From Candidatus Thorarchaeota archaeon (GTDB lineage Archaea; Asgardarchaeota; Thorarchaeia; Thorarchaeales; Thorarchaeaceae): DNA of 64,000 nt. Location of the stretch: assembly GCA_016839275.1 (NCBI GenBank), contig JAEOUM010000117.1:63861-127860 (forward strand). Direction: 5' to 3'. Below, piece by piece: positions 2,703-17,934 of the stretch. Both the position numbers and the translations under genes were made by a program. The notes below the pieces were generated by a model. The model was not told where the DNA came from and did not search any database. It saw only the letters and a program-made list of their open reading frames with translations. Within the stretch, counting starts at the first letter, position 1; each line of letters opens with the position of its first letter.

Positions 2703-4221
2703 GATTACAGCAGAATACCCACCCACAGCAAGACTGGGAACCGTTGTTTCTACAGACTCAGGTCCCAATGTTATGGAATTCTCATTCGTAGTAGAGGGTG
2801 GTCCAAAAGAGGTAGTTGCAAGGCGCGGTGAATTCATCTCCGTCGTCACTGATAACGGGACCGTGATTGCGAGAGTTCAAGACCTTGTCAGAACAAATAG
2901 ATATTATCAACACGCAGAAGCAGTAAGAGAGTACCAATCACGAGGGGAGCCCCTACGTTCTATATTTCCTACAGATCGATGGCAATATACTATTGCAAAA
3001 GCAAGGGTATTAGGGCTGTGGTCTGGAGGACAAACAATCCGTCCATACTTTTCAATTTCCCCGGGGGCTGTTGTTAGAAGACCCGATGAGAGCACATTGG
3101 CCTCCTTCCTAAAACTCGATACGAAAAATGGGTTGAATCTTGGAACCCTTGCATACCAGAGCCTTGGATTCGCCCCATCAGTTGATCGGTTATTGTCAAA
3201 GCATCTTGCCATCTTAGCTATGAGTGGAGCGGGAAAATCATACTTTGTTTCAGTTCTGTTGGAAGAATTACTGACCCGTACGAAAGAGCAAGGGCGACTC
3301 TCGGTCATTGTCATAGATGTGCATGGTGAGTATAGTTATCTCAAGGATATTGAACCAGAGAACCTTGGTCTTCCTCAGGGAGAGTTCCGAGTTGATCATG
3401 TTAGAGCATCGCATTTTCAAATACCTGTTCAGTTGCTTACAGCAGAATCTATTGGAGCCCTAGTAGCAGACATGAGTTCCATCCAAGTTCGGGACCTGCG
3501 ACGCGTAATCTCTGAAATGCAGGACACTTTGAAGTCCGGTTATACTCTGGCTGATATTGTCACGTATATTCGTGATGATGAAACTATCAGTAAGAATACA
3601 AAGGAAGCCCTCATTGGCTGGCTCTTTAGTCTTGATGAAACCAGCCTATTTGGAAAGGGTGCCACTCCAGACATTCGAACTATTGTAAAACCCGGTAAGA
3701 TTACACTTATTGATCTAAGTGATTTCATTAGTTTGAAAAAGAAGCAGATAATAGTATCTTATCTTGCTAATGAACTCCTTAGGCTTAGACGTAGGGGCGA
3801 CATTCCTCCCTTTCTTCTAATACTGGAGGAGGCTCATCAATTTTGTCCTGAGGGCCGTCATGAGATAGCTCTTCCAAAAAGTCGCATTGAAACGATTGCA
3901 CGTGAGGGACGAAAATTCCATGCACTCTTATGTTTGATATCCCAGAGACCTGTGAAGCTCTCAACGACAGTACTTAGCCAATGTAGCAATCAGGCTATCT
4001 TCCGATGCACAAATCCGTACGATCTTGATCATATTGGTCGATCAAGTGAGGGTATTGACCGCCCATCTCTTGATGCAATTACAACTCTTGAGATTGGAGA
4101 GGCTCTATTCATCGGTGAAGCTGTTTCAGTACCCACATTTGTGAAGATACGAAAAAGACGTTTTGAACCATCTGGCTTAGCTCAAACTCTATCCGAGGCA
4201 ATCAAAAAGGCTGATAGATAA
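2689..4221 (+). CDS. herA: HerA DNA helicase/translocase (FtsK-like ATPase)
   Basis: Walker A AMSGAGKSYF; Walker B LLILEEAHQF; canonical nurA-herA pairing with a 14-nt overlap. Confidence 0.8.
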   Translation: MEEVKITAEYPPTARLGTVVSTDSGPNVMEFSFVVEGGPKEVVARRGEFISVVTDNGTVIARVQDLVRTNRYYQHAEAVREYQSRGEPLRSIFPTDRWQYTIAKARVLGLWSGGQTIRPYFSISPGAVVRRPDESTLASFLKLDTKNGLNLGTLAYQSLGFAPSVDRLLSKHLAILAMSGAGKSYFVSVLLEELLTRTKEQGRLSVIVIDVHGEYSYLKDIEPENLGLPQGEFRVDHVRASHFQIPVQLLTAESIGALVADMSSIQVRDLRRVISEMQDTLKSGYTLADIVTYIRDDETISKNTKEALIGWLFSLDETSLFGKGATPDIRTIVKPGKITLIDLSDFISLKKKQIIVSYLANELLRLRRRGDIPPFLLILEEAHQFCPEGRHEIALPKSRIETIAREGRKFHALLCLISQRPVKLSTTVLSQCSNQAIFRCTNPYDLDHIGRSSEGIDRPSLDAITTLEIGEALFIGEAVSVPTFVKIRKRRFEPSGLAQTLSEAIKKADR

Positions 4222-4276: not shown

Positions 4277-4942
4277 TTGAGATACACTGGGGGTCTCAAG
4301 TCCTTGAATGATGACGAGATGAATGATGTACGACAGTTGATTGATCTAATGCAGTCACAATTAGTAGAACTATTTGATCAACTACGTGAGTTGAGAGAGC
4401 GTCTCAACCTTATCTCAGAGCCATCATCAGATGGCGAATCATCCATTCTTCCCCTCTTTGCTGAAGTCAAAAAGACTTCTAAGAAATCTGCTAGTAGTAC
4501 CGAATTGGACATTGATGAGAGCTCAGAAGAAGCAGTAGCCAATGATGAAGAGCTGGAAAACCCTCCGAACAATCACTCTACTTCTCCCACTGAAGATGTT
4601 GACGTATCTTTAGTGGACTCTATTGACTCAGCTTCTGGTACTTTCGACTCCACGGCAATAAGTGCAAAGGTGAGTCGGGTTCTCGATCCAATAGCACGAG
4701 AGTTACGGACTGGCGAAGCAACTGCGGATATTATTATGGAATATCTTCAATCCGCAAAAGAATATTTAATTGACGAGGATGAACGGAAGAAGAAAGTTGC
4801 GCGGGACATGGATATAGTCTTGAATTTTCTAAAAGCACGGGGAAAGAGGGGAATACGGTCGGAGGAACGTGATAACATATTGAAAAGAATACGCCGCTGG
4901 AAAGCCCACCTAGTATCTTATTCAGACTCTCCAGCAGAATAG
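4277..4942 (+). CDS. Hypothetical acidic, helical protein downstream of herA
   Basis: 221-aa ORF, acidic and helical, no recognisable motif. Confidence 0.35.
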   Translation: MRYTGGLKSLNDDEMNDVRQLIDLMQSQLVELFDQLRELRERLNLISEPSSDGESSILPLFAEVKKTSKKSASSTELDIDESSEEAVANDEELENPPNNHSTSPTEDVDVSLVDSIDSASGTFDSTAISAKVSRVLDPIARELRTGEATADIIMEYLQSAKEYLIDEDERKKKVARDMDIVLNFLKARGKRGIRSEERDNILKRIRRWKAHLVSYSDSPAE

Positions 4943-7448: not shown

Positions 7449-7664
7449 CTACTCTGGAATCTGTATCCAAAGAATGTTATTGCCTCTAATCAAAATCTGA
7501 CCATACTTTGCCAAAATCTGCTCGTTTTCCATTTCCTCAGCTTCTGAAAGTGTGAGGTTCATATACATATCACATCTAGTCAGGTGACCTCTAAAGATCC
7601 TCTGATCCTTGAGCTTTACTGAAATTACATCTTCAAGCTGTTGTTCAAGTGCTTTAATGGGCAT
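7449..7664 (-). CDS. Sm-like archaeal protein (SmAP); the ORF track extends the N-terminus to 7742
   Basis: Sm1/Sm2 pattern ...VKLKDQRIFRGHLTRCDMYMNLTLSEAEE...ILIRGNNI; likely start at the internal Met MPIKAL. Confidence 0.7.
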   Translation of the reverse strand: MPIKALEQQLEDVISVKLKDQRIFRGHLTRCDMYMNLTLSEAEEMENEQILAKYGQILIRGNNILWIQIPE

Positions 7665-7821: not shown

Positions 7822-8811
7822 ATGCCACTTATCTGTCTTGGACTTGAAGGAACTGCACACTCATTCGGTGCTGGCATAGTCACAAGTGAGGGTGTTGTAC
7901 TTGCAAATGAATGGGACATGCTAAAACCGTCTCAAGGAGGCATCCATCCCCGTGAAGCAAGTAGACATCACTCTGATTTTGGTCCAAGTATCATTAGTAA
8001 GGCATTCGAAACTGCAGATATCAATTACAGGGATATTGATTTGATAGCCTTCTCGAGAGGTCCTGGCCTGGGTCCCTGTTTGAGGACTACGGCCACAATG
8101 GCGAGAACACTTGCAGTAAAACTTGGAATTCCTCTGGTAGATGTCAATCATTGTGTTGCTCACATAGAGATAGGCAATCTTGAGTCTGGCTTCGATGATC
8201 CGGTGACAGTTTATGTTTCAGGAGGAAACACTCAGGTAATTGCGTATGCTGGAGGGCGTTTCAGAACCTTTGGAGAAACACTAGACATTGCAATCGGAAA
8301 CATGCTAGATGTACTTGGTCGCCACTTTGGCATGCCCTTTCCAGCAGGTCCGATAATAGAGAAGGAGGCAAGGGCGGGTAGAACATTCTATAGTCTTCCT
8401 TACTCTGTTAAGGGTATGGATATCAGCTATTCAGGAATGCTTACTGCGGCAAAAAGACTATTCTCGGAAGGAATTCCAATCCCAGATATTTGTTTCAGTG
8501 TTCAGGAAACCTCGTTCGGTATGCTTGCCGAAATTGCTGAAAGAGCCATAGCACACACTAAAAAGAAGGAGCTTCTTCTGACTGGAGGTGTTGCACGCAA
8601 CAATCGCTTAACAGAGATTCTATCAGGAGTGTCAGAACGGCACGAAGCACGATTTCATAGAGTTTCTCCTTCTCTAGCTGGTGATCAGGGAGCGATGATT
8701 GCATGGAATGGTATCTTACAGTACAAGTCTGGTCATGAAATTAAAATCAGCAGTTCTCATGTTCTACCCAAATGGAGAACTGATGAGCAAGATATACTAT
8801 GGAGAAAATGA
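7822..8811 (+). CDS. kae1: KEOPS subunit Kae1 (tRNA t6A37 threonylcarbamoyltransferase)
   Basis: MPLICLGLEGTAHSFGAGIV N-terminus; ASKHA/Kae1 metal-binding His pair (HCVAH). Confidence 0.85.
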   Translation: MPLICLGLEGTAHSFGAGIVTSEGVVLANEWDMLKPSQGGIHPREASRHHSDFGPSIISKAFETADINYRDIDLIAFSRGPGLGPCLRTTATMARTLAVKLGIPLVDVNHCVAHIEIGNLESGFDDPVTVYVSGGNTQVIAYAGGRFRTFGETLDIAIGNMLDVLGRHFGMPFPAGPIIEKEARAGRTFYSLPYSVKGMDISYSGMLTAAKRLFSEGIPIPDICFSVQETSFGMLAEIAERAIAHTKKKELLLTGGVARNNRLTEILSGVSERHEARFHRVSPSLAGDQGAMIAWNGILQYKSGHEIKISSSHVLPKWRTDEQDILWRK

Positions 8812-14820: not shown

Positions 14821-15018
14821 TTGGTTCTGACCAGAAAACTAGATATGACTATCATTCATCATGCGTCTGAGATGCATGATATGGACGCAATTGTATGTTC
14901 CCGTTGTGGATTCGCAGAGGTCGCTCTTGTACGAAAAGAGATGCTTGGGAGCGGCAAGTACCGAAAGAAGTGGCACTGTCCACGTTGTAGCAACACTTGG
15001 GAAACCGTTGACAAGTAG
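14821..15018 (+). CDS. Small zinc-ribbon protein (2 x CxxC)
   Basis: CSRCG...CPRCS in 65 aa; lies between rps3ae and tRNA-Leu. Confidence 0.3.
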   Translation: MVLTRKLDMTIIHHASEMHDMDAIVCSRCGFAEVALVRKEMLGSGKYRKKWHCPRCSNTWETVDK

Positions 15019-15072: not shown

Positions 15073-15160
15073 GCGGAGGTTGCCCAGCCTGGTTAAAGGC
15101 GCAGGGTTTAGGTCCCTGTCTCGTAGGAGTTCGCGAGTTCAAATCTCGCCCTCCGCACCA
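15073..15160 (+). tRNA. tRNA-Leu(TAG), class II, with encoded CCA
   Basis: Manual fold gives acceptor GCGGAGG/CCTCCGC, 3-bp D stem, anticodon stem CAGGG/CCCTG with loop TTTAGGT (anticodon TAG), long variable arm, T arm GCGAG-TTCAAAT-CTCGC, discriminator A. Confidence 0.8.
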
Positions 15161-15342
15161 TTTTAATACAATTTTGGCATTTATTAGATATTCATCTTAT
15201 CATCGTAACGTTCTTATAATTGTTTGATTTTGCACATATTTCGCGGCATTTCTGGGAGGTAATGACTAGCTACATCTCTCCAGAGAGGATGTTTTTGAAT
15301 TCATCCTAATGTCGTAGTATATGGGTAGGAGTAACGACAAGA

Positions 15343-15687
15343 TTGAAGCAGAAGGTAGTTTGTCCTCATTGTGTCAAGGAAAAGCATACTATAGAAACAC
15401 ACGTGGTCGACGGCTTGGAAACCGTGAAAAATACTGGCAAGGCAAAATGGCATCCTCTTCTAAAAAAGGAATCAGAGGAGGTTTGGCAAAGGGATATTTC
15501 AATTGGTCTTGGCATCGAATGCAAGTGTGGAAGAACCTTCTTCGTCTTTAACGTCATGAATGAGAACTCATTGAAAGTATCGCCCGAATTGAGTGATAAT
15601 TTATTCAGTCCAGCGTACTGTATTCAGTGTCGCTCAGCTTTTGTTTCTCAAGACCTCGTCTGTCCTACTTGTAATAAAAAATGTTAG
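15343..15687 (+). CDS. Double zinc-ribbon protein with TTG start; the first gene inside the tRNA-Leu-flanked insert
   Basis: CPHC...CKCG...CIQC...CPTC; sits between tRNA-Leu and its 3'-end repeat. Confidence 0.35.
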   Translation: MKQKVVCPHCVKEKHTIETHVVDGLETVKNTGKAKWHPLLKKESEEVWQRDISIGLGIECKCGRTFFVFNVMNENSLKVSPELSDNLFSPAYCIQCRSAFVSQDLVCPTCNKKC

Positions 15688-15700
15688 AGAGTGTGGTTGT

Positions 15701-17248
15701 ATGTCTGAATATCGCGTAGGTCCACCTGGTTGGCAAGCACCGAATCTGACTCCGAGAGAAACGGTTGTTTGCTGGGAGATTGAGGAAGGCGTTAAGGAAC
15801 AGTACAATAGACTAAAAGGATATTGGGAGTTGGGTGAATTGACACGCCCCTCACTGTATGAGATTATCTGGCAGGACAAAAAATCCTCTCTTGTTCCCAA
15901 GCTTTCTTTTATACCAGTAACGAGAGCTTATGGTTTCAATATCAACATTCTTCAAAGATCTTTTCCAGATGATAGAATCGATCCTATCTACTTCCTTCAC
16001 AAGGGATTTACTCCAAAGGATAGAAGGGTCATATTTACCGCAACCGAAACCGGAATGATTCTGGACTTTCCATCTCCTGTCGGTCTCATTTTAAAAAAGC
16101 GTGTATCATTTCAGCACCCCCACTTCGAATATCAGCTCCTCGATATGGCTGATGGAACACTTCCTTCTTCCCAGAACCCTCTCATTGCTCAAATAGAAAA
16201 AGAAATTGATCATAGTAAGAGAATTACTGATGATGAGTCTTCGAAGCTGATTGCGTGTGTTAATGGTCTTCAAGACGAAGAAAAATTTGAACTTTTTAAA
16301 TTCGCCCCTTACAAGTTTAAGTACCCAGCATATGCAGCAATCATCCCTTACATGGAAAAGACCATCATTTTTGCATCTAGCTTGAACACAACTTCGAGTT
16401 ATGGGAACCGTCACAAGGGTGGTATTGCTAAACTTCGTATTGAAGAGGATAATGATGCCACCGACTATGAGATTGCTCTTCCTGGTGGATCCCTCAGCGC
16501 TTACTATCTCGTTAAGCTTCTTTCAGCTGTAACAGAAGCTAATAGAGCTAGTAGTCCTATCAGCGTAATCCATCCTGAAAATCTGGGAACTCTTGGTGTC
16601 TTTCTTACTGTAGAAGCCACAAGACGTATAGTAGATCCAAGCTCATCAGAACTATCCTTGCATGAGATTTACGGTACCGCTCCCACTGAGAGACTTGGTA
16701 TTCTAGGTCGGTCTATTAATTTAGCAGTATTTCCCAAGAAACCTGTTAAAGAACTCCCAGAATTGAATATAGATTGGCATGACTCACCTCTTACTGAAAC
16801 TATTTGGAAGTCTATTAATCCACGTGTTCCTCTGGATTTTGCTGATAGTGTAAAATGGGAGGTTACTACTATAGAAGGCTCAGCTGACGAAGGCGTGGCC
16901 AAGGTCCGAACAGAAGTAAAGAACTCTTACCTGCACAATATCCTGAAGTGGAGTCAATCTTCAGAAGGAACAATGGAACAGTTTGAAACTATTAGGACAA
17001 ACATTGAAACACAAGGAATGGGAACCGGCGAACCACTTAGTGGTATATATAATGGCCACAATGCCCAGTACGTTCAAGGCTTTATAATCCAAAAGAATGT
17101 ACCAACAATCATTACTGCTCGCCTTCTGCATTGTGAGAACAGGAGTATGAATCTAGTCTGGATTTTATCTTGTTCCGCTCGTTCAAAATCAGAGGCTGAA
17201 GCGGGATGTAGCTATGGGACCGGCTTAATTCGCTGTCACGAATCTTAA
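15701..17248 (+). CDS. Hypothetical 515-aa protein (ORF track opens at 15593); the second gene of the insert
   Basis: Long ORF with no recognisable motif; ends a few nt before the tRNA-Leu 3' repeat. Confidence 0.4.
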   Translation: MSEYRVGPPGWQAPNLTPRETVVCWEIEEGVKEQYNRLKGYWELGELTRPSLYEIIWQDKKSSLVPKLSFIPVTRAYGFNINILQRSFPDDRIDPIYFLHKGFTPKDRRVIFTATETGMILDFPSPVGLILKKRVSFQHPHFEYQLLDMADGTLPSSQNPLIAQIEKEIDHSKRITDDESSKLIACVNGLQDEEKFELFKFAPYKFKYPAYAAIIPYMEKTIIFASSLNTTSSYGNRHKGGIAKLRIEEDNDATDYEIALPGGSLSAYYLVKLLSAVTEANRASSPISVIHPENLGTLGVFLTVEATRRIVDPSSSELSLHEIYGTAPTERLGILGRSINLAVFPKKPVKELPELNIDWHDSPLTETIWKSINPRVPLDFADSVKWEVTTIEGSADEGVAKVRTEVKNSYLHNILKWSQSSEGTMEQFETIRTNIETQGMGTGEPLSGIYNGHNAQYVQGFIIQKNVPTIITARLLHCENRSMNLVWILSCSARSKSEAEAGCSYGTGLIRCHES

Positions 17249-17254
17249 AGATTT

Positions 17255-17288
17255 GAGTTCGCGAGTTCGAATCTCGCCCTCCGCACCA
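17255..17288. repeat. 34-bp direct repeat of the tRNA-Leu 3' end (33/34 identical to 15127..15160); att-like
   Basis: GAGTTCGCGAGTTCGAATCTCGCCCTCCGCACCA matches the tRNA-Leu T-arm/acceptor/CCA. No matching 5' acceptor strand upstream, so it is not a complete tRNA. Confidence 0.7.
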
Positions 17289-17592
17289 CTTCTTCAAGAT
17301 GCGTTTTATTCCTCTTGTGACCTTTTCGAGTGATTTGCTCTACTATGATGTATGACAGTTTGAACATGACTGTAATGGAAGTTGACCACCACTAAAGAAA
17401 AAGTGAATCCCTAAAAATGCGACAAATCCAATGACTGCGATCACAATGACAACTACTAGTACTTTCAGTAATTTATTCATGAGGCTCAAATTCTAAAAAT
17501 ATTTCGATGTCATTTTTTATAAATCCATTACTATTCATTTTCTGTCGTAATCCTCATTATGTTCTTTGCTTTTCAGCTACCTGTGAAATATA

Positions 17593-17934
17593 ATGAAGTA
17601 TCTCTTCTTAGCTACTGATGAAAATAAAATGCAACTCTATCATCTGCTACTGAATGCAATCAACTTCCATGATAAGGGGCATGAAGTTGCTACAATTCTT
17701 GAATGTGCCTCTCCAAAGCTTCTGATTGGGATTGCTGATGGCACCATCAAACTTCCGGTCTTTGATAAGGCTATGGAACTTGGAATCATCGATCACGCAT
17801 GCAAGGCCTGTAGCGCTGCTTTCTCAGCAACTGAGGCTGCACAGAAACTTGGAGTCGCTCTAAGGGGCGAATTGAGCGGGCATAGTGATTTGTTGAAATT
17901 TGCTGACGCTGGGTTCTCCATTCTCACATTTTAG
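17593..17934 (+). CDS. DsrE/DsrF-like small sulfur-relay family protein
   Basis: 113 aa, with conserved Cys within ...IIDHACKACS.... Confidence 0.4.
   Translation: MKYLFLATDENKMQLYHLLLNAINFHDKGHEVATILECASPKLLIGIADGTIKLPVFDKAMELGIIDHACKACSAAFSATEAAQKLGVALRGELSGHSDLLKFADAGFSILTF

Follow-up and report, generated by a model that had tools for sequence, protein, structure and literature searches.

How a transfer RNA (tRNA) gene of an Asgard archaeon comes to be followed, 2.1 kb downstream, by a second copy of its own 3′ end is the question raised by a 64-kb stretch of Thorarchaeota DNA, referred to here as the window. The only tRNA that ARAGORN calls in the window, and with which Rfam concurs, is a tRNA-Leu(TAG), and the 34 nucleotides that close this gene recur downstream on the same strand with 33/34 identity, the sole mismatch lying within the T-loop (TTCAAAT versus TTCGAAT). 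The two copies enclose two open reading frames (ORFs), a zinc-ribbon ORF with a TTG start and an ORF of 515 aa, which we refer to together as the module (Table 1). A sequence-only reading of the same DNA had taken this arrangement for an attachment-site (att) footprint of integration, left either by an element of which most had been deleted or by one whose 515-aa protein belongs to an unrecognised recombinase or cargo family. The comparisons described below bear out the repeat, the two ORFs and the footprint, and indicate that the segment 15161-17288 is probably a complete, non-autonomous mobile cassette, which would belong to a Thorarchaeota-wide pool and be served by a recombinase acting in trans.

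The tRNA-Leu site and its module

The repeat is not expected by chance: with up to three mismatches allowed, the 34-mer matches the window at these two positions alone, and no match occurs in 100 shuffles. The distal copy lacks a 5′ acceptor strand, yields no tRNA with ARAGORN and finds nothing above threshold in Rfam, where a sub-threshold match to the tmRNA model reaches 18.7 bits against a gathering score of 47. Together, these results exclude a functional tRNA or a split-tRNA half at 17255-17288; no valid complete tRNA is recovered there by either program, and the second copy is, as had been proposed, not a gene. The cassette ends distally in …AAGATTT-GAGTTCGCGAGTTCGAATCTCGCCCTCCGCACCA and starts with TTTTAATACAATTTTGG…, whereas CTTCTTCAAGATGCG… is the window sequence that would adjoin the tRNA-Leu gene after excision of the cassette. 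The GC content of the insert (0.40-0.44) shows no difference from its surroundings. We also note that AGATTTGA (17249-17264), located just 5′ of the distal copy, is the reverse complement of the T-loop/T-stem sequence TC(G/A)AATCT (15131-15146) and allows an alternative 8-bp hairpin around the 5′ strand of the T-stem, a feature confined to the window lineage.

Related genomes hold the same site in an empty state. The neighbours of the locus in the window include S3Ae, the PolD small subunit and Cdc6, which help to identify the host as a Thorarchaeota archaeon, and the 113-aa gene keeps its place to the right of the integration site across Thorarchaeota. At two empty loci (L015 and L012; L and P numbers denote the loci and proteins compared), the tRNA CCA is directly followed by TTC(T/A)..TCTGT(A/C)GTAA.GCTCATTATC…ATGAAGTA, leading into the 113-aa gene, and the gap between the tRNA and this gene measures 60-73 nt in L025, L015, L044, L051, L052 and L054. 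The same host flank directly follows a partial copy in L001, L013 and L011. An empty site, with the tRNA joined to the downstream flank, is what the sequence-only reading had proposed to look for; such sites are present in L015, L012, L025 and others and support insertion, although the flank begins in the window at about position 17534 and not, as had been predicted, at 17289. The module itself is absent from all 71 S3Ae loci of species-representative genomes.

The same module is, in addition, found behind a second tRNA-Leu gene. The loci of P0002 (71% identity; L001-L003) show the order S3Ae, tRNA-Leu(TAG), zinc-ribbon gene, 513-aa gene and a 40/40 copy of the tRNA end, whereas P0003 and P0004 (55%; L004 and L005) are encoded in another neighbourhood, directly behind tRNA-Leu(CAG). 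Measured from the end of the tRNA to that of the copy, the module spans 2128, 2144, 2137 and 2139 bp in the four lineages, across the two tRNA-Leu genes. Moreover, L025 and L005 belong to one assembly (GCA_016839445.1), in which the TAG site is empty, with a 63-nt gap, and the module resides at the CAG gene. A same-strand copy bounding the insert, empty sites and the same insert at a second target, which are the features looked for in tRNA-targeted integration, are all present, and the latter two lend the proposed att-type footprint its support. The distal copy of L004 and L005 has shrunk to GCCCTC(C/T)GCACCA after a short hairpin. This CAG-site copy (L005:7078-7112; L004:2906-2938) forms a hairpin of 7-9 bp with a 5′ acceptor-like strand, GCGGAGGGC-tcgagttct-GCCCTCCGC-ACCA.

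Conservation extends over the whole length of the module. Between the window and L001, the 515-aa gene is 78/87/51% identical at the three codon positions; the value of 51% at third positions indicates that synonymous sites are near saturation, and by this sequence measure purifying selection acts on the module genes, both of which are intact. Identity between these lineages reaches 97% for the 34-nt copy, equal to the tRNA-Leu gene and its orthologue (97%), compared with ~45-60% for unconstrained non-coding DNA and ~45% for the non-coding DNA next to the copy. Within the leader, which is 60-75% identical between the window and L001, a block at 15203-15259 (TCGTAAC..CTTATAAT..GTTTGA..CGCGG..TGGGAGG) is kept in all four module copies, at TAG and CAG sites alike, which suggests that the cassette carries its own promoter-like region; we presume this block to be an archaeal promoter/5′ untranslated region. 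The TTG start of the zinc-ribbon gene aligns with an ATG in L001.

Polar arrays behind Thorarchaeota tRNA genes

The inserts at the TAG site vary among other Thorarchaeota, each being closed by a partial tRNA copy. They comprise a 452-bp cassette with a perfect 41-nt repeat (L017), further cassettes measuring 480, 597 and 730 bp, a run of three copies (L041), a cassette of 2228 bp encoding an LVIVD-repeat surface protein (L013) and an insert of ~4 kb with a TnpB-like gene and a C39 peptidase (L032). A scan of metagenomes with an att 26-mer recovered at least 120 loci; among the matches listed, at least two same-strand copies are present in 28 of the 80 metagenome loci, arrays stand behind tRNA-Leu genes with the anticodons TAG, CAG, GAG and CAA, and one contig carries seven copies. 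When all loci are considered, 53 of the 180 tRNA-Leu-type sites hold at least two copies, with one to at least six cassettes each. Wherever the anchor is on the contig, the complete tRNA always comes first and the later copies are devoid of a 5′ acceptor strand.

The 72 units between copies are mostly 445-790 bp long and consist of essentially one ORF each, many of which encode small membrane proteins. Nineteen cassette families of fixed size recur in varying orders and combinations, and at least three of these, including the module described here, are found at tRNA-Leu genes of differing anticodon (sites TAG, CAG and GAG). An alignment of 90 partial copies reveals an invariant core of 19-20 nt, AAATCTCGCCCTCCGCACCA, conservation falling sharply 5′ of this core, and each cassette family has a characteristic 5′ extension (about 19, 27, 34 or 41 nt).

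Closely related arrays differ by entire units. At tRNA-Leu(GAG), L147 is 99.6-99.8% identical to L119 and L153 over the flank, the tRNA and the first cassette, and contains one extra cassette of ~735 bp relative to both, with the alignment breaking and resuming on an att copy. Downstream, L121 shares 96% identity with L147 and is without the first two cassettes, such that the 3′ end of its tRNA aligns with the third copy of L147. The comparison of these four loci indicates that whole cassettes are gained or lost exactly at the copies.

Cassettes of this type are not confined to tRNA-Leu, as indicated by L081, where a tRNA-Phe gene (8174-8250, minus strand) has a copy of its 3′ end 549 nt downstream (repeats 7614-7647 and 8163-8196), enclosing a single DUF3788 gene. 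Just past the tRNA-Phe copy of this locus lies an operon of a zinc-ribbon gene and a 367-aa partner. In L085, P0018 (347 aa), the closest short relative of the 515-aa protein, is encoded together with its zinc-ribbon partner and a 139-aa ORF between direct repeats of ~100 nt, which may represent a second kind of cassette boundary. These repeats (1862-1943, 3929-4030 and 4474-4573), of which the first two are 2067 nt apart, start with the hairpin GAGAGAGGaagaCCCTCTCTC; the third follows after another 545 nt and encloses a membrane ORF of 133 aa. The L085 repeat is not tRNA-derived and is not in Rfam.

Some loci deviate from the general arrangement. In L010, L045, L060, L068, L126 and L163, tRNA-Leu(TAG) is inverted with respect to S3Ae and the partial copies are on the other strand, which suggests that copies of opposite orientation have recombined to give inversions. 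Introns are present in many tRNA-Leu genes of Thorarchaeota (L010, L013, L027, L041 and many metagenome loci), and ARAGORN misses or mislabels such genes unless its intron mode is switched on. Two partial copies in L010 (5500-5560 and 5979-6040, minus strand) bear an insertion of ~30 nt in the T-loop, as if they derived from an allele bearing an intron at this very position. TnpB/Cas12f-like proteins (Pfam Cas12f1-like_TNB) are encoded in or near four arrays, including L032:5455-7131; TnpA was not detected alongside them.

To the right of the window cassette, the extra segment between the distal copy and the host flank encodes a 48-aa hydrophobic membrane ORF (17343-17489, minus strand) with a TATA-like box upstream. 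The segment resembles the small membrane-protein cassettes of other loci, except that it has no distal copy, and from this resemblance may represent an older cassette, the second at this site, that has lost its closing copy; a third, decayed copy ahead of the host flank was not found, the local alignment score of 14 being below the shuffle mean of 16. To the left of the cassette, a 65-aa zinc-ribbon ORF (14821-15018) is located between S3Ae and tRNA-Leu, is matched by tblastn at 44-94% in most Thorarchaeota loci and is a host gene outside the cassette.

Table 1. Features of the tRNA-Leu(TAG) locus, in window coordinates
Feature	Position	Strand	Basis
tRNA-Leu(TAG), complete, CCA encoded; anchor of the array, attL side	15073..15160	+	ARAGORN; Rfam tRNA 48.9 bits
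First 34-nt copy: end of variable arm, T-arm, acceptor 3′ strand, A73, CCA	15127..15160	+	
20-nt core AAATCTCGCCCTCCGCACCA within the first copy	15141-15160	+	core derived from 90 partial copies
Cassette leader	15161..15342	+	leader alignment
Zinc-ribbon protein, 114 aa, Cys-rich with four CxxC/CxC motifs and a TTG start; gene 1 of the cassette operon	15343..15687	+	
515-aa protein, probable cargo	15701..17248	+	
Partial copy of the tRNA-Leu 3′ end (33/34), putative distal attachment site (attR type), cassette end	17255..17288	+	
Extra segment of ~245 nt between distal copy and host flank	17289..17533	.	unique to the window genome; no match in other loci
Conserved host flank (TTCATTTTCTGTCGTAATCCTCATTATG...TGTGAAATATA), adjoining the tRNA where the site is empty	17534..17592	+	junctions versus L012, L015, L001, L013, L011
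113-aa host gene, weak DsrE-like match	17593..17934	+	

Proposed mechanism and alternatives

We suggest that the cassette, comprising the promoter-like leader, the zinc-ribbon gene, the 515-aa gene and a terminal attachment site, would have entered the 3′ end of tRNA-Leu(TAG) by conservative site-specific recombination. We infer a circular form of the cassette bearing one att copy, which would recombine either with the tRNA-Leu 3′ end or with any existing copy, the recombinase acting in trans; the copy at 17255-17288 would then be the distal att site of the cassette. The tRNA gene would stay intact because the exchange falls inside the shared 3′ segment, and the crossover is placed provisionally within GCCCTCCGCACCA, since this sequence is common to every copy, including the divergent copies at the CAG site. 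By this route, cassettes would stack as polar arrays (tRNA, cassette, copy, cassette, copy and so forth) behind tRNA-Leu genes of several anticodons. We tentatively extend this proposal to a dedicated, integron-like gene capture system in Thorarchaeota, which we consider possible: the platform for single-gene cassettes with a 19-20-nt core would be tRNA-Leu genes, and probably also those for further tRNAs (tRNA-Phe, for instance), and a recombinase from the genome or from a helper element would excise, insert and reshuffle the cassettes, the window operon being one of the larger cassettes.

The statement that no integrase is evident holds for the module proteins, the window ORFs and the surroundings of the arrays, among the families listed in each search. 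No integrase domain is present in the two module proteins (Pfam, PHROGs, NCBIfam and PADLOC), nor was an integrase found in ten hot-spot cargo proteins. The ORFs of 230 aa or more that lie within 5 kb of arrays, 99 in all, show no integrase among the 25 Pfam families with the most matching proteins, which is weak evidence, and none among the best 25 of 34 PHROGs families, which is somewhat stronger evidence, with TnpB-type hits only. Likewise, the best 25 of 27 PHROGs families matched by the 46 window ORFs include no integrase. The PHROGs matches of the window include one protein in the 'terminase large subunit' family phrog_2666 (E 1e-16) and two with a match to ParA-like partition proteins; these are probably host ATPases. 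Integration of the SSV type was also considered and rejected, as neither cassette ORF extends into a copy, the ORFs that do read through the copies are short and spurious, and no integrase family was matched.

A dedicated recombinase would be dispensable if homologous or microhomology recombination between the identical 20-40-nt 3′ ends of tRNA-Leu genes looped cassettes out and in. Such a process would exploit the 3′ segment that all tRNA-Leu isoacceptors have in common, together with the direct-repeat copies, which permit loop-out, and it fits both the negative integrase searches and an extent of identity that ranges from 19 to 41 nt depending on the cassette family. However, the sharp and fixed edge at which conservation drops 5′ of the core in 90 copies suggests a defined site recognised by a protein, and the cassette at tRNA-Phe, closed by a copy of that tRNA's 3′ end, suggests a mechanism that is directed to tRNAs in general. 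Furthermore, 19 nt of homology is very short for efficient recombination, and how new cargo would acquire a terminal tRNA-Leu copy is left unexplained. We consider this process, the principal alternative for the shuffling of cassettes, unlikely to account for the arrays.

That the module is the stump of a larger, mostly deleted provirus, plasmid or cryptic integrated element that once carried an integrase would correspond to the usual fate of integrated elements in archaea. Prochlorococcus islands hold degenerate elements and scattered partial tRNAs (10.1101/2020.12.28.424599), and both the smallest cryptic integrated element on record (2.6 kb) and a 1.8-kb insert of Caldiarchaeum still have a recombinase (PMC6563490, PMC3293823). 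The deletion invoked by the sequence-only reading is nevertheless highly improbable and already largely refuted by the constant length and conserved ends of the module in four lineages and at two tRNA genes, by its conserved leader and by two intact genes under purifying selection. Moreover, among the families listed in the searches no fragment of an integrase was found in the 72 cassettes or nearby, the cassette families have fixed sizes, and insertions and deletions of whole cassettes occur exactly at the copies.

The module proteins themselves were compared with a broad range of sequences and structures. The 515-aa protein has zero matches in Pfam, PHROGs, NCBIfam and PADLOC, and the zinc-ribbon protein matches generic zinc ribbons in these databases and nothing beyond. 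Four close cluster representatives of the 515-aa protein exist among 5.8 billion proteins, and a profile search of 1.84 billion representatives returned 19 relatives. Its N-terminal ~340 aa recur in a small family of Thorarchaeota proteins 320-385 aa long; the remaining ~170 aa at the C terminus form an added domain. The Thorarchaeota relatives found with a zinc-ribbon profile (28-43% identity) are each encoded ~10 nt upstream of a 367-379-aa relative of the 515-aa protein, indicating that the pair is a conserved operon; these distant operons reside in ordinary single-copy chromosomal contexts, mostly away from tRNAs. One distant zinc-ribbon relative carries a Trm112-like label as its source name, which we dropped, since Pfam shows no Trm112 in the window protein.

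An AlphaFold model of the 515-aa protein (mean confidence, pLDDT, of 77), computed from an alignment of 20 sequences from a deep hidden Markov model search, predicts an α-β-α sandwich that can be superposed on DcrB, PsbP, Mog1 or Eag chaperones. In structure comparison the model matches solely Mog1/PsbP/DcrB/Eag-like binding folds of the DUF1795 type, and no nuclease, integrase, transposase or primase is found among the matches. Judged from the model, the two proteins are most likely cargo, namely a zinc-ribbon protein paired with a soluble protein that has a binding or adaptor role.

These results leave very little room for the proposal that a new recombinase is encoded here, in the form of the 515-aa protein alone or together with the zinc-ribbon protein, and that the 2.1-kb unit is an autonomous minimal element. 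The module always lies between tRNA-Leu and a partial copy, the protein family is tiny and confined to one lineage, the zinc-ribbon partner could bind DNA, and P0018, too, is enclosed by direct repeats. Against this, the predicted fold is of the binding type only, ~68 other cassettes share the att site without encoding the 515-aa protein, the shorter relatives are mostly not beside tRNAs, the distant operons have no flanking tRNA repeats, and multi-copy occurrences resembling insertion sequences are not seen. An autonomous integrative element was rejected on the same grounds, neither cassette protein having an integrase domain. Finally, a role for the distal copy as an RNA element, acting as a tRNA-like mRNA 3′ end for RNase P/Z processing, CCA-related stabilisation or termination, would suit its position on the sense strand, 6 nt past the stop codon, its tRNA-like conservation, the 7-9-bp hairpin ending in ACCA in L005 and L004 and the T-rich tracts that follow copies, but is scarcely credible given that cassette genes are oriented equally in both directions relative to the tRNA (36:36), half of them being antisense to the copy, which argues against a role at the RNA level, that predicted folds are not significantly more stable than shuffles (z −1.7 to +0.4), that L004 and L005 show no compensatory changes, and that Rfam gives no match above threshold.

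Several observations weigh against a mobile cassette served in trans. The searches identified no recombinase, and neither an excised circle nor a free element bearing attP was seen; the integrase negative refers to the best 25 families listed and to ORFs of at least 230 aa, so that a rare integrase could hide. Both the att 26-mer and the 19-mer are absent from viral contigs, which provides no candidate for an attP-bearing virus or plasmid. Of the further copies that the sequence-only reading had proposed to look for, the module was found at other tRNA-Leu genes and the repeat within arrays, the latter with no match in viral contigs. A Logan contig of 2152 bp (L007), considered as a candidate excised circle, is collinear with window positions 15133-17284 and has no terminal overlap, which shows that the assembly merely broke off within the tRNA sequence common to both ends. 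The window cassette does not present a clean junction between copy and host flank on its right, as ~245 nt intervene. In L005, the duplication runs at least 17 nt beyond the CCA (T[C/G]ACTCATTCTCATG) and the T-arm part has diverged into a hairpin, such that this CAG-site copy is not fully explained by a single uniform att model. In addition, the tRNA 2.1 kb upstream could, through gene conversion, be what preserves the distal copy. The divergence between the window and L001 is similar for module proteins and host proteins, from which it follows that the cassette may have been immobile at this locus for a long time. In view of this similarity, vertical descent of the module from an ancestor shared by the window and L001 lineages was considered; the closest relatives of the window (L008 and L118), however, carry an MBL-fold gene at the site in place of the module, which requires replacement or independent gain.

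If a trans-acting system of this kind operates, it would give Asgard archaea, of all prokaryotes the closest relatives of eukaryotes, a means of turning over their flexible genes. The arrays would point to a missing enzyme, a trans recombinase that recognises a 19-20-nt tRNA-derived site, and they constitute a catalogue of accessory genes, many of them for small membrane proteins, for which the core provides a fixed tag to find further cassettes in metagenomes. For annotation, the 515-aa protein is better described as probable cargo with a predicted Mog1/PsbP-like fold than as an integrase, and partial copies are not to be recorded as tRNA genes.

Comparison with known systems

Integration into tRNA genes, together with partial tRNA copies, is well documented in archaea, where the elements concerned are 2.6-98 kb or 9-23 kb in length and bear an integrase (PMC6563490, PMC9897764, PMC8371274). 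Even the 1.8-kb insert of Caldiarchaeum encodes a recombinase (PMC3293823), and integration at tRNA sites has been reported for Asgard elements (PMC8813620). The elements of the pNOB8/SSV type, the cryptic elements of Thaumarchaeota and those of Thermococcaceae resemble the window locus in having an intact tRNA, an insert and a direct 3′ repeat, and tyrosine-recombinase elements at tRNA genes also share with it the re-use of sites, giving tandem arrays, and the occurrence of empty and occupied alleles (PMC6563490, PMC8371274, PMC9897764). These elements, at 2.6-98 kb, carry their own integrase by definition, which in the SSV type is split at att, whereas the 72 Thorarchaeota cassettes are mostly 0.45-0.8 kb long, consist of one gene and have no integrase in cis or within 5 kb among the families listed.

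Casposons are likewise archaeal, and family 2 casposons target tRNA-Leu in Methanosarcina. Beyond the association with a tRNA-Leu 3′ end, the likeness extends to a duplicated target sequence and to tandem insertions. However, a casposon is bounded by terminal inverted repeats and a short target-site duplication and encodes Cas1 and PolB, whereas the window cassette has a 34-nt tRNA-derived repeat and no terminal inverted repeats, Cas1 or transposase were found, so that a casposon or other DNA transposon was rejected. A further parallel is provided by the cis-mobilizable elements (CIMEs) of streptococci, which are att-flanked derivatives of integrative and conjugative elements (ICEs) or integrative and mobilizable elements (IMEs), lacking an integrase. 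Like the cassettes described here, they consist of DNA flanked by attL and attR without recombination genes and rely on the integrase of a related element (the ICE/IME/CIME family is reviewed in PMC5704250). Unlike the cassettes, CIMEs are decay products of larger elements, located at the 3′ end of a protein gene, are few per genome and do not form arrays of many single-gene units.

The tycheposons and islands of Prochlorococcus also use specific tRNA genes, push older material outward, leave partial tRNAs between units and contain cargo that behaves as plug-in cassettes (10.1101/2020.12.28.424599). They differ in that tycheposons carry a tyrosine or serine recombinase and replication modules, integrase remnants occur across the islands and the host is a bacterium; the Thorarchaeota units are far smaller, have a precise 19-20-nt core on every unit and are without recombinase genes. 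The tycheposon islands are the closest bacterial analogue.

Integrons consist of intI, attI and Pc beside an array of promoterless cassettes, with structured attC sites of variable sequence; the cassettes move as circles, which IntI re-inserts by way of folded single-stranded attC. The Thorarchaeota arrays share with them polarity, small and mostly single-gene cassettes with one distal site each, reassortment and non-autonomy (PMC9668308), and integrons have been reported in Archaea (PMC9668308). In contrast to integrons, the Thorarchaeota arrays use a tRNA gene as the platform and a fixed, tRNA-derived site, and their cassettes lie in both orientations and apparently have their own promoters. 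We did not assign the arrays to the integron class, as the one-site-per-cassette organisation is present and the arrangement of intI, attI and Pc is not, with no IntI-like gene among the families listed within 5 kb.

In the literature, as far as our incomplete coverage extends, we found no description of integrase-less arrays of single-gene cassettes with a fixed tRNA 3′ core in Asgard archaea. Insertion into a tRNA gene is ordinary, and the footprint itself is of a known kind; its setting, lineage-wide arrays of non-autonomous cassettes at tRNA-Leu, appears to be new, a reshuffling pool of tiny, precisely bounded cassettes without a recombinase being unlike the archaeal integrated elements described.

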